64,000 nucleotides of DNA, taken from the NCBI GenBank assembly GCA_964649975.1, contig CAZYSM010000009.1, positions 478 through 64,477 of the forward strand, given 5' to 3'. How positions within the stretch are numbered: position 1 is the first letter of the stretch; every line of letters starts with the position of its first letter. A program made the translations under genes and the position numbers. Below are positions 13,085 to 20,058 of the stretch, piece by piece. The DNA is from an uncultured Bacteroidales bacterium. Lineage in GTDB: Bacteria > Bacteroidota > Bacteroidia > Bacteroidales > S143-33. A model generated the notes under the pieces. It saw only the letters and a list, made by a program, of their open reading frames with translations. It did no database searches and had not been told where the DNA came from.

Positions 13085-14176
13085 ATGGCATTGAAAGTTG
13101 GAATAGTTGGACTTCCTAACAGCGGAAAAACTACAATATTTAACTGTTTTTCGGACACAAAAGCAGAGGCTGGCGTAGGTTTTGCCACTAAGTCAAATTT
13201 TGGAACGGCTCGGGTGCCAGACCCTCGTCTTTACGAATTGGCAAAACTGCAACCTACCGAAAAAATCATTCATACTACCATTGAGTTTGTGGATATACCT
13301 GGCCTGCGCCGTGGCAGTGGACGTAGTGGTTCTTCTTTTCTTAATGACATCAGGAATGTAGATGCTCTGGTGCACGTCGTGCGTTGTTTTGACGACCCTA
13401 ATGTTCCGCACGAGGACGGTTCAGTTGACCCTATCCGGGATATTGAAACATTGAATATTGAACTGCAGCAGAAGGACCTGGATTCCATTGAAAAACGTCT
13501 GGAAAAGATTGAGAAAAAGGCTCGTTTTGGCGATAAATCCTTACAAAAACAGGTGGAAGTCCTCAAAAGAGCCAAGGAACATCTTGAAAATTTTCAGAAC
13601 CTTCGGACTTTGGAACTTAAAGACGCTGAGAAAGAATTACTTGCAGAGCTTTTTCCTTTGACCATAAAGCCAGTTTTATACGTGGCCAATGTAGATGATG
13701 AAGCTGCTGCCGAAGGCAACGAATATAGTGCTGCTATGGAAGCCTGGATTAAGGAAAATGACCCCGGGGCAGAGGTGCTTATCATTGCTGCCAGGCTTGA
13801 GGCTGAGATTGCCGAGCTGGAACCTGAGGACAGGGAGGAATTCCTCAAGGATGCTGGTCTGACTGAACCCGGTGTTAATAAGCTCATTGCTGCTGCATAT
13901 AGATTGTTGGATTTGCAGACATTCTTCACTGTTGGTCCAAAAGAAATCCGTGCCTGGACTATCCGTCGCGGATCTACTGCTCCTGAGGCTGCTGGAGTGA
14001 TACATTCCGACCTTCAGCGTGGATTTATCCGTGCCGAGGTTATGCATTATGACGATTTTATCAAATACGGGTCTGAGCAGGAAGTTAAAAAAGCCGGAAA
14101 ATTTTATCTTGAGGGTAAGGATTACGTTGTCCAGGAAGGAGATATATTGCACATTAGGTTTAATGTAAGTAAATGA
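13085..14176 (+). CDS. ychF: Redox-regulated ATPase YchF (Obg family)
   Basis: GIVGLPNSGKTT, HVVRCF, FFTVGPKEIRAWT, APEAAGVIHSD, GFIRAEV, EGKDYVVQEGD. Confidence 0.95.
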   Translation: MALKVGIVGLPNSGKTTIFNCFSDTKAEAGVGFATKSNFGTARVPDPRLYELAKLQPTEKIIHTTIEFVDIPGLRRGSGRSGSSFLNDIRNVDALVHVVRCFDDPNVPHEDGSVDPIRDIETLNIELQQKDLDSIEKRLEKIEKKARFGDKSLQKQVEVLKRAKEHLENFQNLRTLELKDAEKELLAELFPLTIKPVLYVANVDDEAAAEGNEYSAAMEAWIKENDPGAEVLIIAARLEAEIAELEPEDREEFLKDAGLTEPGVNKLIAAAYRLLDLQTFFTVGPKEIRAWTIRRGSTAPEAAGVIHSDLQRGFIRAEVMHYDDFIKYGSEQEVKKAGKFYLEGKDYVVQEGDILHIRFNVSK

Positions 14177-14177
14177 T

Positions 14178-14209
14178 TTTGACGTTTTATAAATAAAGTT
14201 TTATCTTTG
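14178..14209 (+). promoter_or_regulatory. Bacteroidota sigma70-type promoter for greA
   Basis: TTTG (14178-14181), 20 nt spacer, TATCTTTG (14202-14209) fits the -33/-7 consensus. Confidence 0.7.
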
Positions 14210-14219
14210 TCACAGAAAT

Positions 14220-14266
14220 AATCCCTGCCGCTGAGTTATCAGAAGGCGGGGATTTGTTTTTGTTTT
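14220..14266 (+). terminator. Terminator-like hairpin between the promoter and greA (ychF terminator and/or greA leader attenuator)
   Basis: AATCCCTGCC/GGCGGGGATT stem followed by TGTTTTTGTTTT. Confidence 0.65.
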
Positions 14267-14294
14267 AATTCCTTAAAAATTAAAAAAATAGCTT

Positions 14295-14771
14295 ATGTCT
14301 GACAAGACTTTTTATGTTTCCAAGGAAGGCCTGGAAAAACTGAAAAAAGAACTTGAATATCTCACCAAGGTAGAACGTCCGCGTATTTCCCAGCAAATTG
14401 CCGAAGCTCGTGATAAGGGTGATTTATCCGAGAACGCCGAATATGATGCTGCCAAAGAGGCACAGGGTATGCTGGAGATGAAAATAGCCGAGCTTCAGCA
14501 GAAAATACGTAATGCAAGAGTGATTGACGAAAGTCAGCTTAATGCCGAGACTGTTAATATTATGACGCGTGTTAAGCTCAAAAATCTTAAAACTGATAAA
14601 GTAGTAGAATATACCATTGTTCCGGAGAACGAGAGTGATTTCCGGGCTGGTAAAATCGCTGTAAATACGCCTATTGCAAAAGGACTTTTGGGAAAAAAGA
14701 AAGGAGAAAAAGTTCAGATTCAGGTGCCTGCTGGACTTCTGGAATTTGAAATTCTGGATATTTCTATATAA
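14295..14771 (+). CDS. greA: Transcription elongation factor GreA
   Basis: EARDKGDLSENAEYDAAKE, TPIAKGLLGKK. Confidence 0.97.
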   Translation: MSDKTFYVSKEGLEKLKKELEYLTKVERPRISQQIAEARDKGDLSENAEYDAAKEAQGMLEMKIAELQQKIRNARVIDESQLNAETVNIMTRVKLKNLKTDKVVEYTIVPENESDFRAGKIAVNTPIAKGLLGKKKGEKVQIQVPAGLLEFEILDISI

Positions 14772-14801
14772 TACTGTGTCATAGCGCTTTGTTTCCTATT
14801 G

Positions 14802-14826
14802 GGCCGCCGTCGGGGCGGCTTTTTTT
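14802..14826 (+). terminator. Intrinsic terminator after greA
   Basis: GCCGCC/GGCGGC stem followed by a T-run. Confidence 0.7.
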
Positions 14827-15244
14827 ATTCTGAGATGAATTTTACAACAGAATAGACAAGATTGTTCAAATCTTTCAAGGATCCTTTATAAAGGATATTG
14901 ATGTTTTCGGTGTAGGATTGTAGATGGAAATATAATGATTTGAAAAATAACCATCTGCGTGTCTGAGAATATCCTACTTCCCGTATGGAGTTTTTTGTCA
15001 GAGTATTTACTACAACGTTACGCGGAATGAAATATAAAACCGTTTCTTTGTCAATTTTTACTATTCTTTTGTTAGTGATTATCAAATAAGTTTTTAGCTT
15101 ATACCCGAAAATCATTGCAAAAAAACGGAAGATTGCTGTGAAAAATCTGACCAGTGGATTTGGAGATGTAGTGTAGGCATTTCCTTCTATTTTAAGCAAA
15201 ACTTTTTCATTCTCAAGTAATGTAAGTTCTTTAAAATCATTCAT
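14825..15244 (-). CDS. Hypothetical protein, possible bacterial PH-like domain
   Basis: L.ENEKVL and YLIITNKRIV motifs typical of bPH domains; the start could be 15262. Confidence 0.6.
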   Translation of the reverse strand: MNDFKELTLLENEKVLLKIEGNAYTTSPNPLVRFFTAIFRFFAMIFGYKLKTYLIITNKRIVKIDKETVLYFIPRNVVVNTLTKNSIREVGYSQTRRWLFFKSLYFHLQSYTENINILYKGSLKDLNNLVYSVVKFISE

Positions 15245-15375
15245 TTTCCTGTTCTTTTGCATTTATTCAAAAATATATTTTTCCATTAAGATTTAGAATT
15301 TTCTTTTTGAGGTTTTAGAGAGGAAATTTGTTTATAATTTTTTAAATTTGCATAAAACTAAAAAAATCAATAGTC

Positions 15376-15792
15376 ATGGCTTCGGTATTTACTAAGATAG
15401 TAAAAGGGGAAATTCCGGCTTATAAAATAGCAGAGGACGACAAATTCCTGGCCTTTTTGGATATTAATCCGGTAGCAGAAGGCCATACCCTCGTCATTCC
15501 TAAGCAAGAGATTGATTACTTGTTTGATATTGAGGATGATTTACTTGCTGATATGATTGTTTTTGCCAAAAAAGTAGCAAAGGCTCTGGACAAAGCCATA
15601 GAGTGCAAACGTGTTGGCGTTATGGTGGTAGGAACAGAAGTGCCGCATGCCCATATTCATCTGGTGCCCTTTAAGAATGAGCCTCAAGTGTGTATTGTTG
15701 CACCAAAATTGAAATTTACTGATGAAGAATTTAAAGCTATTGCTGCTAAAATCCGTGAATATATTCCTGAGGAAATAGCTGTTAAAAATTAA
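15376..15792 (+). CDS. HIT family nucleotide hydrolase
   Basis: FTKIVKGEIP, FLDINP, GHTLVIPK, VPHAHIHL histidine triad. Confidence 0.95.
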   Translation: MASVFTKIVKGEIPAYKIAEDDKFLAFLDINPVAEGHTLVIPKQEIDYLFDIEDDLLADMIVFAKKVAKALDKAIECKRVGVMVVGTEVPHAHIHLVPFKNEPQVCIVAPKLKFTDEEFKAIAAKIREYIPEEIAVKN

Positions 15793-16214
15793 TGTTTATG
15801 GACCTGGTTGTTTCAGAGGGGTATTATGATATTTTTTATTCGCAGCAGAAGAAAATTATGCTTATCCGCTGGAAAGTCAAAGTGCTTGATCTTTCGCTTA
15901 TTGAATATAAAGAAATAATGTTTAGGGCCTACGAGTATCTAACAATATTGGATACGGATTACTTGATCCAGGACGGGTCGGATGCTGTTTTTCCGGCTAC
16001 GCTTGAAGCAAATGACTGGATTGTGAAAAATATTTCGCCACGTTTTGCTCAGGTAGGATTGAAAAAGATAGCTTACATAATACCACGGGATGATCGCACC
16101 CTTGAAGGACTGGAAAAAATGGTTGATAAAAGTTTAAGTGTTTTTCCGCAGGTTGAACGAAGACTTTTCCCGGATATAGATAAGGCTATGGCATGGATAA
16201 AAGGTAATATTTAG
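15792..16214 (+). CDS. STAS/SEC14 (SpoIIAA-like) small protein
   Basis: W...ISPRFAQVGLKKIAYIIP and C-terminal F.DIDKAMAWI, typical of Bacteroidota SpoIIAA-like proteins. Confidence 0.7.
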   Translation: MFMDLVVSEGYYDIFYSQQKKIMLIRWKVKVLDLSLIEYKEIMFRAYEYLTILDTDYLIQDGSDAVFPATLEANDWIVKNISPRFAQVGLKKIAYIIPRDDRTLEGLEKMVDKSLSVFPQVERRLFPDIDKAMAWIKGNI

Positions 16215-16322
16215 ATATTGCTTGCTTTTAGTGATGTTTGAAAGATAGGAAAAATGCATAGTTAGGATGTAATAGAAAAATGAAGTAATTTGTAAATGCT
16301 CTCTGATATTATAACTATCCAC

Positions 16323-16353
16323 TTGACAAAAAGTAATAAATTTCATATCTTAG
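16323..16353 (+). promoter_or_regulatory. Promoter of putative sRNA 1
   Basis: TTGACA, 17 nt, TATCTT; also reads as TTG...TATCTTAG, a near match to Bacteroidota TAnnTTTG. The boxes are conserved in copy B while the spacer diverges. Confidence 0.75.
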
Positions 16354-16357
16354 CCTT

Positions 16358-16472
16358 GCGTCGTTAAATAGCCGGTCCGGGAGTGACGCCCCGGACCGCC
16401 CACTGGTTCCGGTGGTAATAATGGAACGTGACGGGGCGCTGTAATAGATTTATCTTAGCGCCCCGTTTTTTT
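16358..16472 (+). ncRNA. Putative structured small RNA 1 (~115 nt), unknown family
   Basis: Promoter upstream; GGTCCGGG/CCCGGACC stem whose loop AGTGACGC is complementary to the 5' GCGTCGTT; second hairpin; ACGGGGCGCT/AGCGCCCCGT terminator plus T7; no ORF. Confidence 0.65.
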
Positions 16473-16827
16473 ATTAGTTTTTTGTGGAATATTCTGTTTA
16501 TTAGATGGTTGTAGTTGTTGAGAGATAAAAATGAGTCTTAGTATCAGCAAAAGGGCGAGATATTTTGGCGTGGCATTACATAGTCCAAATATTGCAGGAT
16601 ATTAAGAGTGGGAGAGTAAAGGTTAGTTATTAATTTCATTAATTTAGGGGAAGTAAAATTTTGAAAATCAATAAAATATCCTAATAACGAGATTAAAATA
16701 AGTCAATTAAACTTTAAAAAGTTAAAACTTTAATAATCAGTGTATTGTGTAAATCAAATTCTTTTATTTCTGACTTTTTTGTCATCCCCATCATGATTTT
16801 TTAGATAGCCTCTTGTTTTTGCATTAC

Positions 16828-16858
16828 TTGACAAAAATAGATGGATTTCGTATATTAG
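16828..16858 (+). promoter_or_regulatory. Promoter of putative sRNA 2
   Basis: TTGACA, 17 nt, TATATT(AG). Confidence 0.75.
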
Positions 16859-16862
16859 TCTT

Positions 16863-16979
16863 GCGTCGTAAAACAGTGGTCCGGGAGTGACGCCCTGGAC
16901 CCCTCCGGGCGTAGGTCCCGGCTTTTTATTTAAACGGGGAACTCACCAAGACATGATTTCGGTGAGCGCCCCGTTTTTT
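16863..16979 (+). ncRNA. Putative structured small RNA 2 (~117 nt), paralog of sRNA 1
   Basis: 5' GCGTCGT; GGTCCGGG-AGTGACGC-CCTGGACC stem-loop (G-U keeps pairing); CCGGG/CCCGG hairpin; AAACGGGG..CTCACC/GGTGAG..CCCCGTTT terminator plus T-run. Confidence 0.65.
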
Positions 16980-17132
16980 ATTAGTTTTTTGTGGAATATT
17001 CTGTTTATTAGATGGTTGTAGTTGTTGAGAGATAAAAATGAGTCTTAGTATCAGCAAAAAGCAGGTATATATTTGGCGTGACATTACATTGGTCAATATT
17101 GCAGGATATAAGAGAGTAGAGGGGAGCAAGGT

Positions 17133-17354
17133 TTAATAGTCAAGTATTTTTCCTAAAATAATAAGAAAAATTATGCTAGCTGGGAGACTAATCAAAAAAA
17201 TATTGTCAGTAATTAAAGATATTAAATAAGGAATTAAAAATAATGAAATTGTTAAAGCTAATGCTTCAAAAGTTTTTTCTGTTAAATATTTAAAGTATTT
17301 ATCTAATAACCAGAAGATAATAATAATCCATCCTATAATAACTAAAGTTGTCAT
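17133..17354 (-). CDS. Small hydrophobic membrane protein (73 aa, ~3 TM)
   Basis: ATG-started ORF with three hydrophobic stretches; size and layout match its neighbours. Confidence 0.7.
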   Translation of the reverse strand: MTTLVIIGWIIIIFWLLDKYFKYLTEKTFEALALTISLFLIPYLISLITDNIFLISLPASIIFLIILGKILDY

Positions 17355-17369
17355 ATATGCAAGATTTGT

Positions 17370-17597
17370 TTATAATTCATTAATTAAACTGTAAATAGCT
17401 AAAAAGCCTGTATAAATGAGATATTCTATAAAGACTATTTCAAAGATGTTTTTGCCTATGAAGGGAACAGGCATCATAATTAAAATTAGTACATATAGAA
17501 AACCATCAGTTTTGATATCTTCCCAATAACGTATGGTCAATGCCACAGGAAGTGAGATTAGGAGTATAAAAAATATTATGATAAAAAATATTTCCAT
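17370..17597 (-). CDS. Small hydrophobic membrane protein (75 aa, ~3 TM), paralog of 18311-18529
   Basis: Shares W[ED][DK]IK...LY...P...N[IL][FY]E...AI with the 72-aa ORF. Confidence 0.75.
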   Translation of the reverse strand: MEIFFIIIFFILLISLPVALTIRYWEDIKTDGFLYVLILIMMPVPFIGKNIFEIVFIEYLIYTGFLAIYSLINEL

Positions 17598-17717
17598 CCC
17601 AGTTCAGTGATTTTATCTTATTTCCGAAAAAAATTAAAAAAATAAGAATAAATGTCAAATTGCGAATTATGTAATTCTTTCGGAAGTGCTGAACTTGACA
17701 TTAATAGATTATAACTT

Positions 17718-17788
17718 GTGTACATCGGCAGAGGGGATGTACACTCCTCTCTGACAGGCGGATGCCTATACGGCGTCCGCATTTTTTT
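17718..17788 (+). ncRNA. Putative structured small RNA 3 (~70 nt; pseudoknot-capable plus terminator)
   Basis: GTGTACATC/GATGTACAC stem with loop CAGAGGG complementary to downstream CTCTCTG; GCGGATGCC/GGCGTCCGC plus T7 terminator; TTGACA at 17695 but with non-canonical -10 spacing. Confidence 0.5.
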
Positions 17789-17806
17789 ATAATTGTTAGA
17801 TTATCA

Positions 17807-18147
17807 TTATAGATATAAAAACAGAAATTCTGCGCTAATCTTGTCCTTTAGTCCGTAAATCCTGTGTTTTAGATTGTTTATATCAAAATAGTATTGACTG
17901 TAAATGATAATTATTTCCGCACGTTTGTTCTCTATAATCTTTCTTATAAAACCATTATTTTGGGCGTGCTTAATAATTTGATTTCAGCAGTTTTTCCGTT
18001 AATTAGTGCATCTATATTTATTTGCTCTGCAAATATTTCATCATGATTATGCTGCTTCAGTGTCTCAGCAGTAGCTACTTCAGACCAACCTGTGTTAGGG
18101 TCAAAATTGTGCTTTTTATGTATAACTGTATAAGTTCCTTTTCCCAG
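17807..18147 (-). pseudogene. Frameshifted remnant of a PD-(D/E)XK-fold, CdiA-C/MuF-toxin-like nuclease domain
   Basis: Frame 1 (18147-17944) reads ...HKKHNFDPNTGWSEVATAETL...IDALINGKTAEIKLLS; it continues in another frame as NNGFIRKIIENKRAEIIIIYSQ...EFLFLYL* (stop 17807); no ATG start. Confidence 0.55.
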
Positions 18148-18310
18148 TTAAAACTATAAATAAAGGTGTTGGTTTAACTTTTATCCTGGTGAGCTTGTCC
18201 TTTATATTTGTTTTGTTGTTAAAAGACAAGAATAGTTTTTGTAGTAATGAAGTATTTTTTATTTTCTCTCATATAAGTGTTGCAAGGATATAAAGGAGCG
18301 TGAGAGTAAG

Positions 18311-18529
18311 TCAATCAAATAGGGCAATAGCACATAGAATTATATAATCAATAAGAAATATTACGTAAGCAAGTTCGTACAGATTGAATATTATAGGAAT
18401 TATAATTGATAATGGCATAATAATATAAAGTTTCGCCTGTTTTATTTTATCCCAGGCATGAATAATTGGAGCTATTAATAGCCCTAATACGAGAGTAAAT
18501 AAATAGAAAAAGGCAATAAATTCAAGCAT
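18311..18529 (-). CDS. Small hydrophobic membrane protein (72 aa, ~3 TM), paralog of 17370-17597
   Basis: ATG-started ORF, three hydrophobic segments, visible similarity to the 75-aa ORF. Confidence 0.75.
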   Translation of the reverse strand: MLEFIAFFYLFTLVLGLLIAPIIHAWDKIKQAKLYIIMPLSIIIPIIFNLYELAYVIFLIDYIILCAIALFD

Positions 18530-18687
18530 AATGCAGAAAGTTTTGTTTATCCTTCGTATATAAATTTATCTGTTTTGTTGTTAAAACACAATAGTAAAAT
18601 TATGGTCTGGTATGATTAAAGAAAGGAATAAGATTTGTTTGTAAATACCTGAATATCAAGATAATGTAGGGGTGGTTTGTTGTTAAT

Positions 18688-18718
18688 AAAAAACTGGGAC
18701 AGCTTGCTGCCCCAGTTT
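18688..18718 (-). terminator. Terminator of the tRNA-Ser/tRNA-Pro transcript
   Basis: AAACTGGG.CAGC/GCTG.CCCAGTTT stem with an A-run on + (U-tract on -). Confidence 0.7.
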
Positions 18719-18721
18719 AGT

Positions 18722-18799
18722 TGGTCGGGGTGCCGAGATTCGAACTCGGGACCTCCTGCTCCCAAAGCAGGCGCGCTAACCGGACTGCGCTACACCCCG
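18722..18799 (-). tRNA. tRNA-Pro(TGG)
   Basis: CGGGGTGTAGCGCAG..., anticodon arm CCTGC-TTTGGGA-GCAGG, GTTCGAATC T-loop, encoded CCA. Confidence 0.97.
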
Positions 18800-18850
18800 T
18801 AGAAAGCACTGGCAAAGATAGTGCTTTTTTGTAAAAAACAAAAAAATCTG

Positions 18851-18937
18851 CGGAGAGGGAGGGATTCGAACCCCCGGTGGGCTTCCGCCCACAGCGGTTT
18901 TCAAGACCGCCGCCTTCGTCCACTCGGCCACCTCTCC
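18851..18937 (-). tRNA. tRNA-Ser(TGA)
   Basis: GGAGAGG acceptor stem, GCGGT-CTTGAAA-ACCGC anticodon arm, long variable arm, GGTTCGAATCC. Confidence 0.96.
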
Positions 18938-19080
18938 TTTGTTCAGAACCTTTTTTGCGAGTGCAAAGCTAAAATTTTAATTCTAAATTTACAAAAAAAA
19001 ATATCGGATTTTTCTTTTATCGCTTTTCTAAAATCTTTTTTTATTTTTATGCTTTGAAACCGATAAGCTTGTTTTAATAC

Positions 19081-20058
19081 ATGGATAATGACAGCATTAA
19101 AGCTATAGACCAGTTAGGAGAAAAATTTGAAGCGTTCAAAACACAGATACATAAGGTTATAATAGGCCAGGACGAGGTTATTGACAGTGTCATAACTGCT
19201 ATTTTCAGCGGAGGACATGTATTACTCCTTGGAGTGCCAGGTCTGGCTAAAACATTATTGGTAAACACCATTGCCAGATCTTTGGGACTTAAATATAAGA
19301 GGATACAATTTACACCGGATTTGATGCCTTCGGATATTATAGGGTCTGAGATATTGGACGAGAATCGTAGATTTAAGTTTATTCAGGGTCCTATTTTTGC
19401 TAATATTATACTGGCCGACGAGATTAACCGCACACCCCCGAAAACACAGGCAGCCTTGTTGGAGGCTATGCAGGAGAAAGCTGTGACAGTCTCAGGTGTG
19501 CGATATGCACTGGAACGTCCTTTTTTCGTATTAGCCACGCAAAATCCCATTGAGCAGGAAGGTACTTATCCTTTACCCGAGGCGCAGTTAGACCGTTTTA
19601 TGTTTAACATTGTGCTGGATTATCCATCTTTTGAAGAAGAGTTGAAAATTGCTGCGACAACCGAACACGAAGCGGCAGACCTGCAGGAGGTTTTATCCGG
19701 CAAGGAGATTTTATTTTATCAAAGTCTTATCCGTAAACAAATACCAGTCAGTGATACCGTTTTGGATTTTGCTGTGAAAATAGTTACTCGTACACGTCCG
19801 GGGACTGATATGGCGCATCCATGGGCGGATAAGTATCTCAATTGGGGGGCTGGTCCCAGAGCTTCACAGTATCTTGTGCTTGCAGCTAAAGCTCATGCAG
19901 TACTCCACGGAAAATATTCACCGGATATTGAGGATGTCAAGGCCGTGGCTTATCCTATTTTACGTCATAGGATTATTCCTAATTATCGCGCCGAGGCTGA
20001 AGGCATTACGTTGGAAAAAATAATTGAAGAAATTATTAAAAATGAAACGATATATTAA
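19081..20058 (+). CDS. moxR: MoxR family AAA+ ATPase
   Basis: GVPGLAKT, RIQFTPDLMPSD, ADEINRTPPKTQAALLEAMQE, ATQNPIEQEGTYPLPEAQLDRF. Confidence 0.95.
   Translation: MDNDSIKAIDQLGEKFEAFKTQIHKVIIGQDEVIDSVITAIFSGGHVLLLGVPGLAKTLLVNTIARSLGLKYKRIQFTPDLMPSDIIGSEILDENRRFKFIQGPIFANIILADEINRTPPKTQAALLEAMQEKAVTVSGVRYALERPFFVLATQNPIEQEGTYPLPEAQLDRFMFNIVLDYPSFEEELKIAATTEHEAADLQEVLSGKEILFYQSLIRKQIPVSDTVLDFAVKIVTRTRPGTDMAHPWADKYLNWGAGPRASQYLVLAAKAHAVLHGKYSPDIEDVKAVAYPILRHRIIPNYRAEAEGITLEKIIEEIIKNETIY

Follow-up and report, generated by a model that had tools for sequence, protein, structure and literature searches.

A tandem pair of candidate small structured RNA genes with a conserved 5' domain in a strain-specific islet of a deep-sea vent Bacteroidales genome

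Small regulatory RNAs (sRNAs) that occur as adjacent paralogues are known from enterobacteria, where OmrA and OmrB have a conserved 5' end and terminator region around a divergent middle and the 5' end acts as a free seed. Of a different kind are the txpA/RatA and bsrG/SR4 pairs of Bacillus subtilis, which are type I toxin-antitoxin loci overlapping at their 3' ends. For the Bacteroidota, Ryan et al. (2020, PMC7366714) give a transcription start site combined with an intrinsic terminator as the hallmark of validated intergenic sRNAs in Bacteroides thetaiotaomicron, and describe Hfq and ProQ homologues as missing in the group. Here we analyze a 64,000-nt stretch (the window) of a metagenome-assembled genome from an uncultured deep-sea vent Bacteroidales bacterium (2.8 Mb, 112 contigs, about 38% GC), in which two tandem units lie about 505 nt apart, each consisting of a promoter-like site, the segment GCGTCGT, a GC-rich hairpin and an intrinsic terminator. 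We propose, at just short of an even chance, that the two units represent a rare, so far undescribed family of small structured trans-acting non-coding RNAs found in flexible-genome islets and virus-like elements. As in OmrA/OmrB, two adjacent paralogues show a conserved 5' end and terminator region and a divergent middle, whereas the phylum is another one, no homology exists and the 5' end has its complement in the hairpin loop of the same RNA. Bacteroides intergenic sRNAs such as GibS (PMC7366714) are alike in their Bacteroidota-type promoter, intrinsic terminator, length of about 60-130 nt and intergenic position, all of which are predicted here. The present RNA differs from them in being unusually GC-rich and structured (the sRNAs of that paper average about 35% GC), in showing no sequence or Rfam relation and in lying in a strain-specific islet.

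All promoter, 5'-strand, hairpin and terminator features that an initial annotation of the locus had listed were found where it placed them. The promoter-like site of copy 1 (c1; 16323..16353, + strand) consists of TTG(ACA) at 16323-16328, 17 nt and TATCTT(AG) at 16346-16353, and that of copy 2 (c2; 16828..16858, +) of TTG(ACA) at 16828-16833, 17 nt and TATATT(AG) at 16851-16858. Both were read from the sequence and by a consensus scan, in which they scored 10/12 and 11/12, respectively. The boxes are conserved while the spacer has diverged (11/17 positions alike), as had been noted, whereas a sigma-70 reading of the sites is not supported, since Bacteroidota promoters are described with TAnnTTTG at -7 and TTTG near -33 instead of sigma-70 hexamers (PMC7366714). 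Both sites fit TTG-N20-TAnnTT(A)G, the copies reading TTG-N20-TATCTTAG and TTG-N20-TATATTAG, and rRNA leaders of relatives carry TAnCTTTG boxes. The scan found 6 sites in total compared with 5.8 +/- 2.5 in shuffled sequences; only the fact that c1 and c2 have both kept them carries weight. GCGTCGT starts 6 nt past the second hexamer in c1 and c2 alike. A start 4-5 nt past the -7 box would be the G of GCGUCG, which makes a +1 at this point a reasonable prediction.

The 5' strand GCGTCGT (c1: 16358..16364, c2: 16863..16869, both +) is complementary to the loop GTGACGC of the hairpin that follows. This hairpin 1 reads GGTCCGGG / loop AGTGACGC / CCCGGACC in c1 (16374..16397, +) and GGTCCGGG / loop AGTGACGC / CCTGGACC in c2 (16878..16901, +); that of c1 folds on its own with -17.7 kcal/mol. 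Its only stem difference is C16392 in c1 versus T16896 in c2, the latter standing opposite G16883, so that the substitution keeps pairing as G-U at 16883/16896 just as the initial annotation had it. Further downstream, c1 carries a second hairpin (CCACTG-GTTC-CGGTGG, 16400..16415, +) and an intrinsic terminator (CGGGGCGC...GCGCCCCG, then T7; 16432..16472, +), both seen in sequence and folding. In c2, the second hairpin (CCGGG-CGTAGGT-CCCGG, 16905-21) is followed by CTTTTTATTT and likely forms an early terminator (16905..16930, +), the only terminator-like site called by the scanner in 16100-17400. The c2 RNA may thus end early at a length of about 65 nt, while a second terminator (CGGGG..CTCACC...GGTGAG..CCCCG, then T6; 16935..16979, +) lies behind. 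Whole-RNA folds are more stable than those of shuffled sequences (z = -4.1 and -4.4), with the minimum free energy (MFE) fold of c2 pairing the loop region otherwise (GACGCCC with GGGCGU). By prediction, both copies show the canonical anatomy of an intergenic sRNA, namely a promoter and an intrinsic terminator around a short non-coding stretch. No RNA run was among the public runs listed as containing this DNA. Promoter boxes that were kept while their spacer diverged, together with a strong hairpin and terminators, amount to a gene-like anatomy found twice. Separately, the c1 terminator arm GCGCCCCGTTTTTT (16432-16472) recurs with exact matches of 12-16 nt at many loci of the same genome and on both strands, at sites that look like stereotyped, often bidirectional terminators.

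The tandem arrangement is not an assembly artefact, as contigs from other public runs, belonging to two further studies, bridge or cover both copies with 0-2 differences: X2 record 3 covers 16506-16895 (2 differences), X3 record 12 covers 16641-16901 (1 difference) and X4 record 17 covers 16865-17134. The duplication that had been described for an RNA of about 115 nt therefore stands, whereas the duplicated element is larger, with an actual repeat unit of about 290-330 nt. Identity between c1 and c2 is distributed unevenly along this unit: 28/33 in the promoter segment, 38/44 in the 5' domain, 34/~60 in the middle, 88/89 over the 3' arm of the terminator and the next 80 nt, and 53/~67 in the remainder. 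The near-identical block (16457..16545 and 16965-17053, +) comprises the 3' arm, a spacer of about 65 nt and the first codons of a tiny open reading frame (ORF), its sole difference being one T in the T run. A third module without an RNA is located at 18246..18312 (+), where a sequence resembling the left flank of the units is joined directly to one resembling the unit end (TTGCAAGGATATAAAGGAG..GAGAGTAAG); this similarity is weak, at about 77-86% over pieces of 14-30 nt. By their look, the two copies support the view of paralogous small RNA genes, each with its own promoter and ending in a terminator.

No Rfam 15 family other than tRNAs reaches its gathering score in the window, and permissive scans of 14000-19500, 16300-17060 and 16340-16480 gave nothing above 22.6 bits, all far under threshold. 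Among whole genomes, the 5' domain was found twice in the window's own genome (G000) and otherwise in the congener G002 only, and not in G001, G003 and G004 (96, 92 and 75% complete). Covariance model R1 matched two of the 151 relatives' genomes (G000 and G002), and a BLAST search of 61 genomes returned G002 as the sole real match. A second model, R2, run on 151 genomes of the phylum, gave five genomes at E <= 0.1 including G000; those inspected (G225 and G266 were left out) were unconvincing. The best outsider, G235 at 31.9 bits, sits in an ORF-like stretch, and the match in G192 looked unrelated. Exact patterns were also run against a genome collection of 185,579 species. The first pattern hit one locus, that of G002, while the second gave 23 loci, none continuing into the 3' arm, and the third 47 loci, all with unrelated loops.

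The G002 copy (WFZV01000120.1) reads GCGTAGT...GGCTCGGG-AGTGACGC-CCCGGCC followed by a terminator (fuller reading GCGTAGTAAAACAGTGGCTCGGGAGTGACGCCCCGGCC) and occupies another locus, divergent from relA/spoT and 190 nt from the contig end, with unrelated flanks. What is conserved across the family is the 5' domain and the terminator, the conserved part of c1 and c2 corresponding to the 5' 40-45 nt, whereas hairpin 2 and the block downstream of the terminator are not conserved. The initial annotation had expected structure to be kept over sequence in the middle hairpin; this was not borne out, as the G002 and viral copies have no such hairpin and that of c2 is probably an early terminator. Rfam scans of the G002 and virus-like loci gave sub-threshold matches only. 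Two occurrences of a different structured element flank the G002 copy (L009, G002:C120, about 104-160 and 252-312, - strand); in this element, TTATATATGGGTCGTG(T/C)CGCTGGCACT comes after a hairpin. It is absent from G000, and one of its two occurrences gives a weak match to Rfam Acido-Lenti-1 (17.7 bits, gathering score 37). At the end of the same contig there is a further promoter-like site (TTGACA...TATATTTG) with a structured start.

Scans for the 17-mer of the hairpin returned at least 118 metagenome stretches and 7 stretches of a viral collection, nearly all of them chance matches in GC-rich DNA. Two contigs stand out by a 27-nt identical core, namely IMGVR_UViG_3300027987_000382 (146.8 kb; locus L133, about 64% GC) and the metagenome contig Ga0181367_1000003 (entered under both L046 and L108). 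Both carry GCGTCGTTAAGC directly before the 17-mer, which gives the joint stretch GCGTCGTTAAGCCGGGAGTGACGCCCCGG, and a terminator follows. Among the 122 distinct loci of the matches listed, these two share an upstream word of up to 10 nt with c1 and c2, while none of the remaining 120 exceeds 7 nt. Ga0181367_1000003 is the only real metagenome match among those listed, four patterns run on the viral collection gave 7, 1, 1 and 5 loci with one real contig, and the core was not found in cultured phages and plasmids. Since the flanking proteins of L133 and L046 are 54% identical, both are counted as one independent event. The core lies inside the longest conserved block of their alignment. In L133 it starts 6 nt past the stop of a 56-aa ORF, while the upstream ORF of L046 has a called length of 69 aa, which becomes about 50 aa if an internal ATG is taken as the start; each of these ORFs has one hydrophobic segment and lies on the same strand as the core. 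Behind the core come the terminator and, starting about 30-90 nt after it, a 123-aa ORF (P0001). The latter belongs to an unannotated four-member family in a large protein database, occurs in the viral collection at one locus (its own) and matches no Pfam, PHROG or PADLOC family. The expected conservation of the 5' part is thus borne out in that the 5' 40-45 nt recur in a congener as well as in virus-like contigs of a distant lineage. As further features of L133 and L046, TTTCCAGTGAGGAAATCGC precedes small ORFs at two places per locus, perhaps as a conserved site of ribosome binding or regulation, and there are additional conserved intergenic blocks, ATCCC(C/T)CGGATTTTACGCC and CGTTCGGGAGAACAC(G/A)A(C/G)ATGAAC, with 1-2 positions differing between the loci.

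In the explanation we favor, the two paralogous RNA genes would each be transcribed from their own Bacteroidota-type promoter into products of about 65-125 nt that start at or near GCGUCGU and end at an intrinsic terminator. The functional part would be the invariant 5' domain, in which a short single strand precedes a GC-rich hairpin and the 8-nt hairpin loop complements the first 5-7 nt. A partner, either a protein or a target RNA, could use this domain as a fixed handle or seed, with the 5' end possibly tucked into a loop-strand helix, and the sequence 3' of it would be free to vary, including hairpin 2 of c1 and the shape of the terminator. The division into a handle and a specificity region that the initial annotation had suggested could be read from the same layout. 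Such RNAs would be of interest given that regulatory RNAs of Bacteroidota beyond gut model species are almost unknown and that the phylum lacks Hfq and ProQ, and they might offer a handle on the control of small membrane-protein genes in genomic islets. That a vent bacterium of 37% GC and a virus-like contig of 64% GC have the core in identical form hints at a partner recognizing RNA shape in very different hosts. A bolder version, which we consider rather improbable, would make the 30-nt core a portable RNA handle common to a jumbo-phage-like virus and bacterial islets, located beside small membrane-protein genes and forming a new RNA class in phage-host conflict or toxin control whose partner reads shape.

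Several results weigh against the favored explanation. Conservation between c1 and c2 peaks not in the RNA but in the 89 nt that overlap and follow the terminator, and a trans-acting sRNA accounts for this by recent gene conversion alone. The -7 box differs from TAnnTTTG by one position (T to A) in both copies, and the G002 copy has no obvious promoter directly upstream. Since the virus-like copies lie just past a stop codon, they may be elements of a 3' untranslated region instead of separate genes. When the variable segments were compared by blastn-short with the genome they come from, a check that had been suggested earlier, no match longer than 13 nt was among those listed, and no target is proposed. 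A duplex search against the islet did no better there than in background, the duplex energies of long sequences being meaningless. The covariation alignment, likewise suggested earlier, is limited to the five known sequences from three lineages and lent no support: in the helix of 5' strand and loop six of seven pairs are invariant and the seventh is disrupted in G002 (C5 to A), no pair of either helix changed on both sides, and scores were not above those of shuffles. The family stands at present as a well-described candidate whose mechanism is not demonstrated.

The possible pairing of the 5' strand with the loop is a separate question. The two segments can form G-C, C-G, G-C, U-A, C-G, G-U and U-G, and the best isolated duplex has 5 pairs at -7.8 kcal/mol, a value matched by 1.5-4.9% of shuffled or random partners. 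The complementarity that the initial annotation had pointed out is therefore present and only modestly unusual, whereas the pairing itself finds no covariation and meets one disrupting change in G002; neither helix is supported by covariation, and that of 5' strand and loop is not tolerated by all variants. In hairpin 1, two independent one-sided changes across the family leave G-U or U-G pairs in a + strand RNA and would leave A-C mismatches if the other strand were read, which fits an RNA transcribed from the + strand. The distance from GCGTCGT to the stem shrinks from 9-10 nt before an 8-bp stem in the Bacteroidales copies to 4 nt before a 5-bp stem in the virus-like copies. Both complementary segments are retained despite this, which is easier to reconcile with RNA pairing than with DNA half-sites at a set spacing. 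The final C of the loop directly abuts the 3' arm, which confirms the 0-nt linker noted earlier, while the conclusion drawn from it, that both helices exclude each other, is not compelling, as kissing-loop complexes with fully paired 6-7-nt loops exist. Taken together, a pseudoknot is plausible but unproven, and we lean slightly against a functional role of the 5'-strand/loop pairing.

Both units are contained in an AT-rich, strain-specific islet of about 2.5 kb (16215..18700; GC 0.31 versus 0.377 for the window) between a gene for a 140-aa protein and two tRNA genes (18725..18937, -, Rfam scan), which form its right border. At the syntenic site of congener G004, a HIT gene, the 140-aa gene and about 180 nt are followed by two tRNAs and MoxR, and the islet is missing. 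Within the islet, three hydrophobic ORFs are encoded on the strand opposite to the RNA units: a 73-aa ORF (17133..17354, -) convergent with c2, whose stop abuts the end of unit 2, a 75-aa ORF (17370..17597, -) 15 nt upstream of it on the same strand, and a 72-aa ORF (18311..18529, -), whose stop abuts the third module and which is weakly similar to the 75-aa ORF. The three show weak mutual similarity and no match to a Pfam, PHROG or PADLOC family. The 73- and 75-aa ORFs, the two of them searched for in G001-G004, were essentially not found there, with a single weak and broken match as the exception. In a large protein database two proteins were listed for the 75-aa ORF, one being a homologue with 87% identity and the other, 100% identical over 77% of the query, probably the window's own protein.

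This layout invites an explanation as modules akin to type I toxin-antitoxin systems, each combining an RNA gene with a convergent gene for a small membrane protein; the RNA or its read-through would pair with the 3' region of the mRNA, and a three-module array would be decaying. The ends of unit 2 and of the third module coincide with the stops of the 73- and 72-aa ORFs, respectively, the hydrophobic, weakly alike ORFs belong to no known family, the modules are in tandem within a variable islet, and the virus-like core directly follows an ORF of 50-56 aa with one hydrophobic segment. Such modules would also account for the well-kept block after the terminator. Like txpA/RatA and bsrG/SR4, they would place a small RNA convergent with a small hydrophobic ORF in tandem modules within a variable region; unlike them, the ORFs are larger, one RNA is without an ORF and one ORF without an RNA, and the predicted transcripts do not overlap. 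The predicted sRNAs end about 150 nt short of the ORF, so that overlap would require read-through. Further, no ORF faces c1, the 72-aa ORF persists without an RNA, and ORFs of 72-75 aa with several hydrophobic segments exceed the typical size of type I toxins. The virus-like ORF lies on the strand of the motif rather than convergent to it, and the G002 copy has no such ORF, although its contig ends 190 nt beyond. We therefore regard a toxin-antitoxin arrangement as unlikely.

The same islet could also be a decaying mobile or viral fragment in which hairpins and terminators merely persist without function. Orphan ORFs in AT-rich DNA adjoining tRNA genes, a module that has already lost its RNA and the tiny distribution (two of 151 relatives' genomes, with no further record from the patterns run on the genome collection) would be expected of such a relic. 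Set against this are promoter boxes, 5' strand, loop and stem that were kept in both copies while their neighbors drifted, stem changes that keep pairing, and the recurrence of the same core at another locus of a congener and in a 64%-GC lineage. A non-functional relic thus appears improbable as well.

The well-conserved block behind the terminator raises the further option of a cis-acting leader, riboswitch-like or a protein-dependent attenuator, with the 5' domain as the putative sensor of a signal and a terminator that would control transcription into the downstream block and its tiny ORF. The order of promoter, structured domain, terminator and highly conserved block with an ATG is that of a leader, c1 could form an antiterminator between CGCCCCG of hairpin 1 and CGGGGCG of the terminator 5' arm, and the virus-like 123-aa ORF starts about 30-90 nt past the terminator. 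In c2, however, the antiterminator pairing is lost, the downstream block is absent in G002, no Rfam riboswitch matches, and no significant fold of the downstream block was found on either strand (z -0.76 and -0.82). Further, the tiny ORFs have only 24 aa (MSLSISKRARYFGVALHSPNIAGY; 16531..16605, +) and 32 aa (17038..17136, +), as found by ORF comparison, and their middles differ through two offsetting 1-nt indels that change the frame, so that they are probably not a conserved peptide. No conserved gene that the element might control was found behind it, and a leader seems a poor prospect. Two smaller observations concern this region. The segments AATATTCTG (16488-16496) and CAGGATATT (16595-16603), kept in both copies, can form 9 bp enclosing the tiny ORF, and MFE folds include this pairing at energies no better than those of shuffles. 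The tiny ORFs (16531-16560 / 17038-17067) begin with MSLSISK(R/K) and viral P0001 (L140:7132-7503, minus) with MKLS(L/I)YR(K/E), a resemblance of a handful of residues that may be due to chance.

The order of elements in the virus-like loci, i.e. gene stop, CGCGUCGUUAA, hairpin, terminator and next gene, recalls lambda nutR and suggests a nut-like site for processive antitermination, with a boxA-like strand and a boxB-like hairpin before a terminator. In c1, UGCGUCGUUAAAUA resembles the rRNA-leader boxA CAGCUCUUUGAAAUAA of congener G003. This resemblance requires an insertion and substitutions, and fades in c2 (GCGUCGUAAAACAG) and G002 (GCGUAGUAAAACAG). In addition, GTTCTTTGAA is found in 7 of 11 other Bacteroidales rRNA leaders, with G003 having GCTCTTTGAA and the congener boxA being GCTCTTTGAAATAA, and the window holds nothing substantial downstream to antiterminate. 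We consider a nut-like site very unlikely.

Several described RNA classes were compared with the 5' domain. The C4 antisense RNA of phages P1 and P7 with its a1/b1 elements (RF03163, clan CL00128) is similar in being phage-linked and in having an upstream strand complementary to later loops, and all three Bacteroidales copies give weak a1b1 matches over the same 5' core. At 13.4, 12.2 and 14.5 bits versus a gathering score of 46.7 these fall far short of membership, and there is neither a C4-like RNA in the window nor icd or ant genes nearby. Loop-strand pseudoknots, kissing loops and the xrRNA of RF03541 share the proposed drawing of a 5' terminus into a helix with a hairpin loop. Here, an end-to-end alignment of the G002 copy to the insect-flavivirus xrRNA model RF03541 scores 25.7 bits (gathering score 50), while c1 and c2 do not match, the aligned pairing GUGgcUCG/UGACGC fails in c2 and a three-way junction is missing. 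A likeness to the pistol ribozyme (CGUUAAAUAG) was dropped, as Rfam gave no match and the linker is not conserved (CGUAAAACAG in c2, CGUUAAGCC in the virus-like copies). Mimicry of a clustered regularly interspaced short palindromic repeat (CRISPR) was likewise set aside, as no array with the core turned up in the pattern scans.

Two observations on the surroundings of the units remain. The 140-aa protein gene just 5' of the islet (15792-16214, +) belongs to a multi-copy paralogue family with 12, 10, 7, 3 and 2 matches in G003, G001, G002, G004 and G005, respectively, including four tandem copies on contig C6 of G002; it has no Pfam, PHROG or PADLOC match. The short AT-rich stretches 16642-16720 and 17190-17276 show high-depth matches, loose-ended on both sides, to pieces of long, otherwise unrelated contigs from other vent metagenomes and may be short dispersed repeats or low-complexity sequence.

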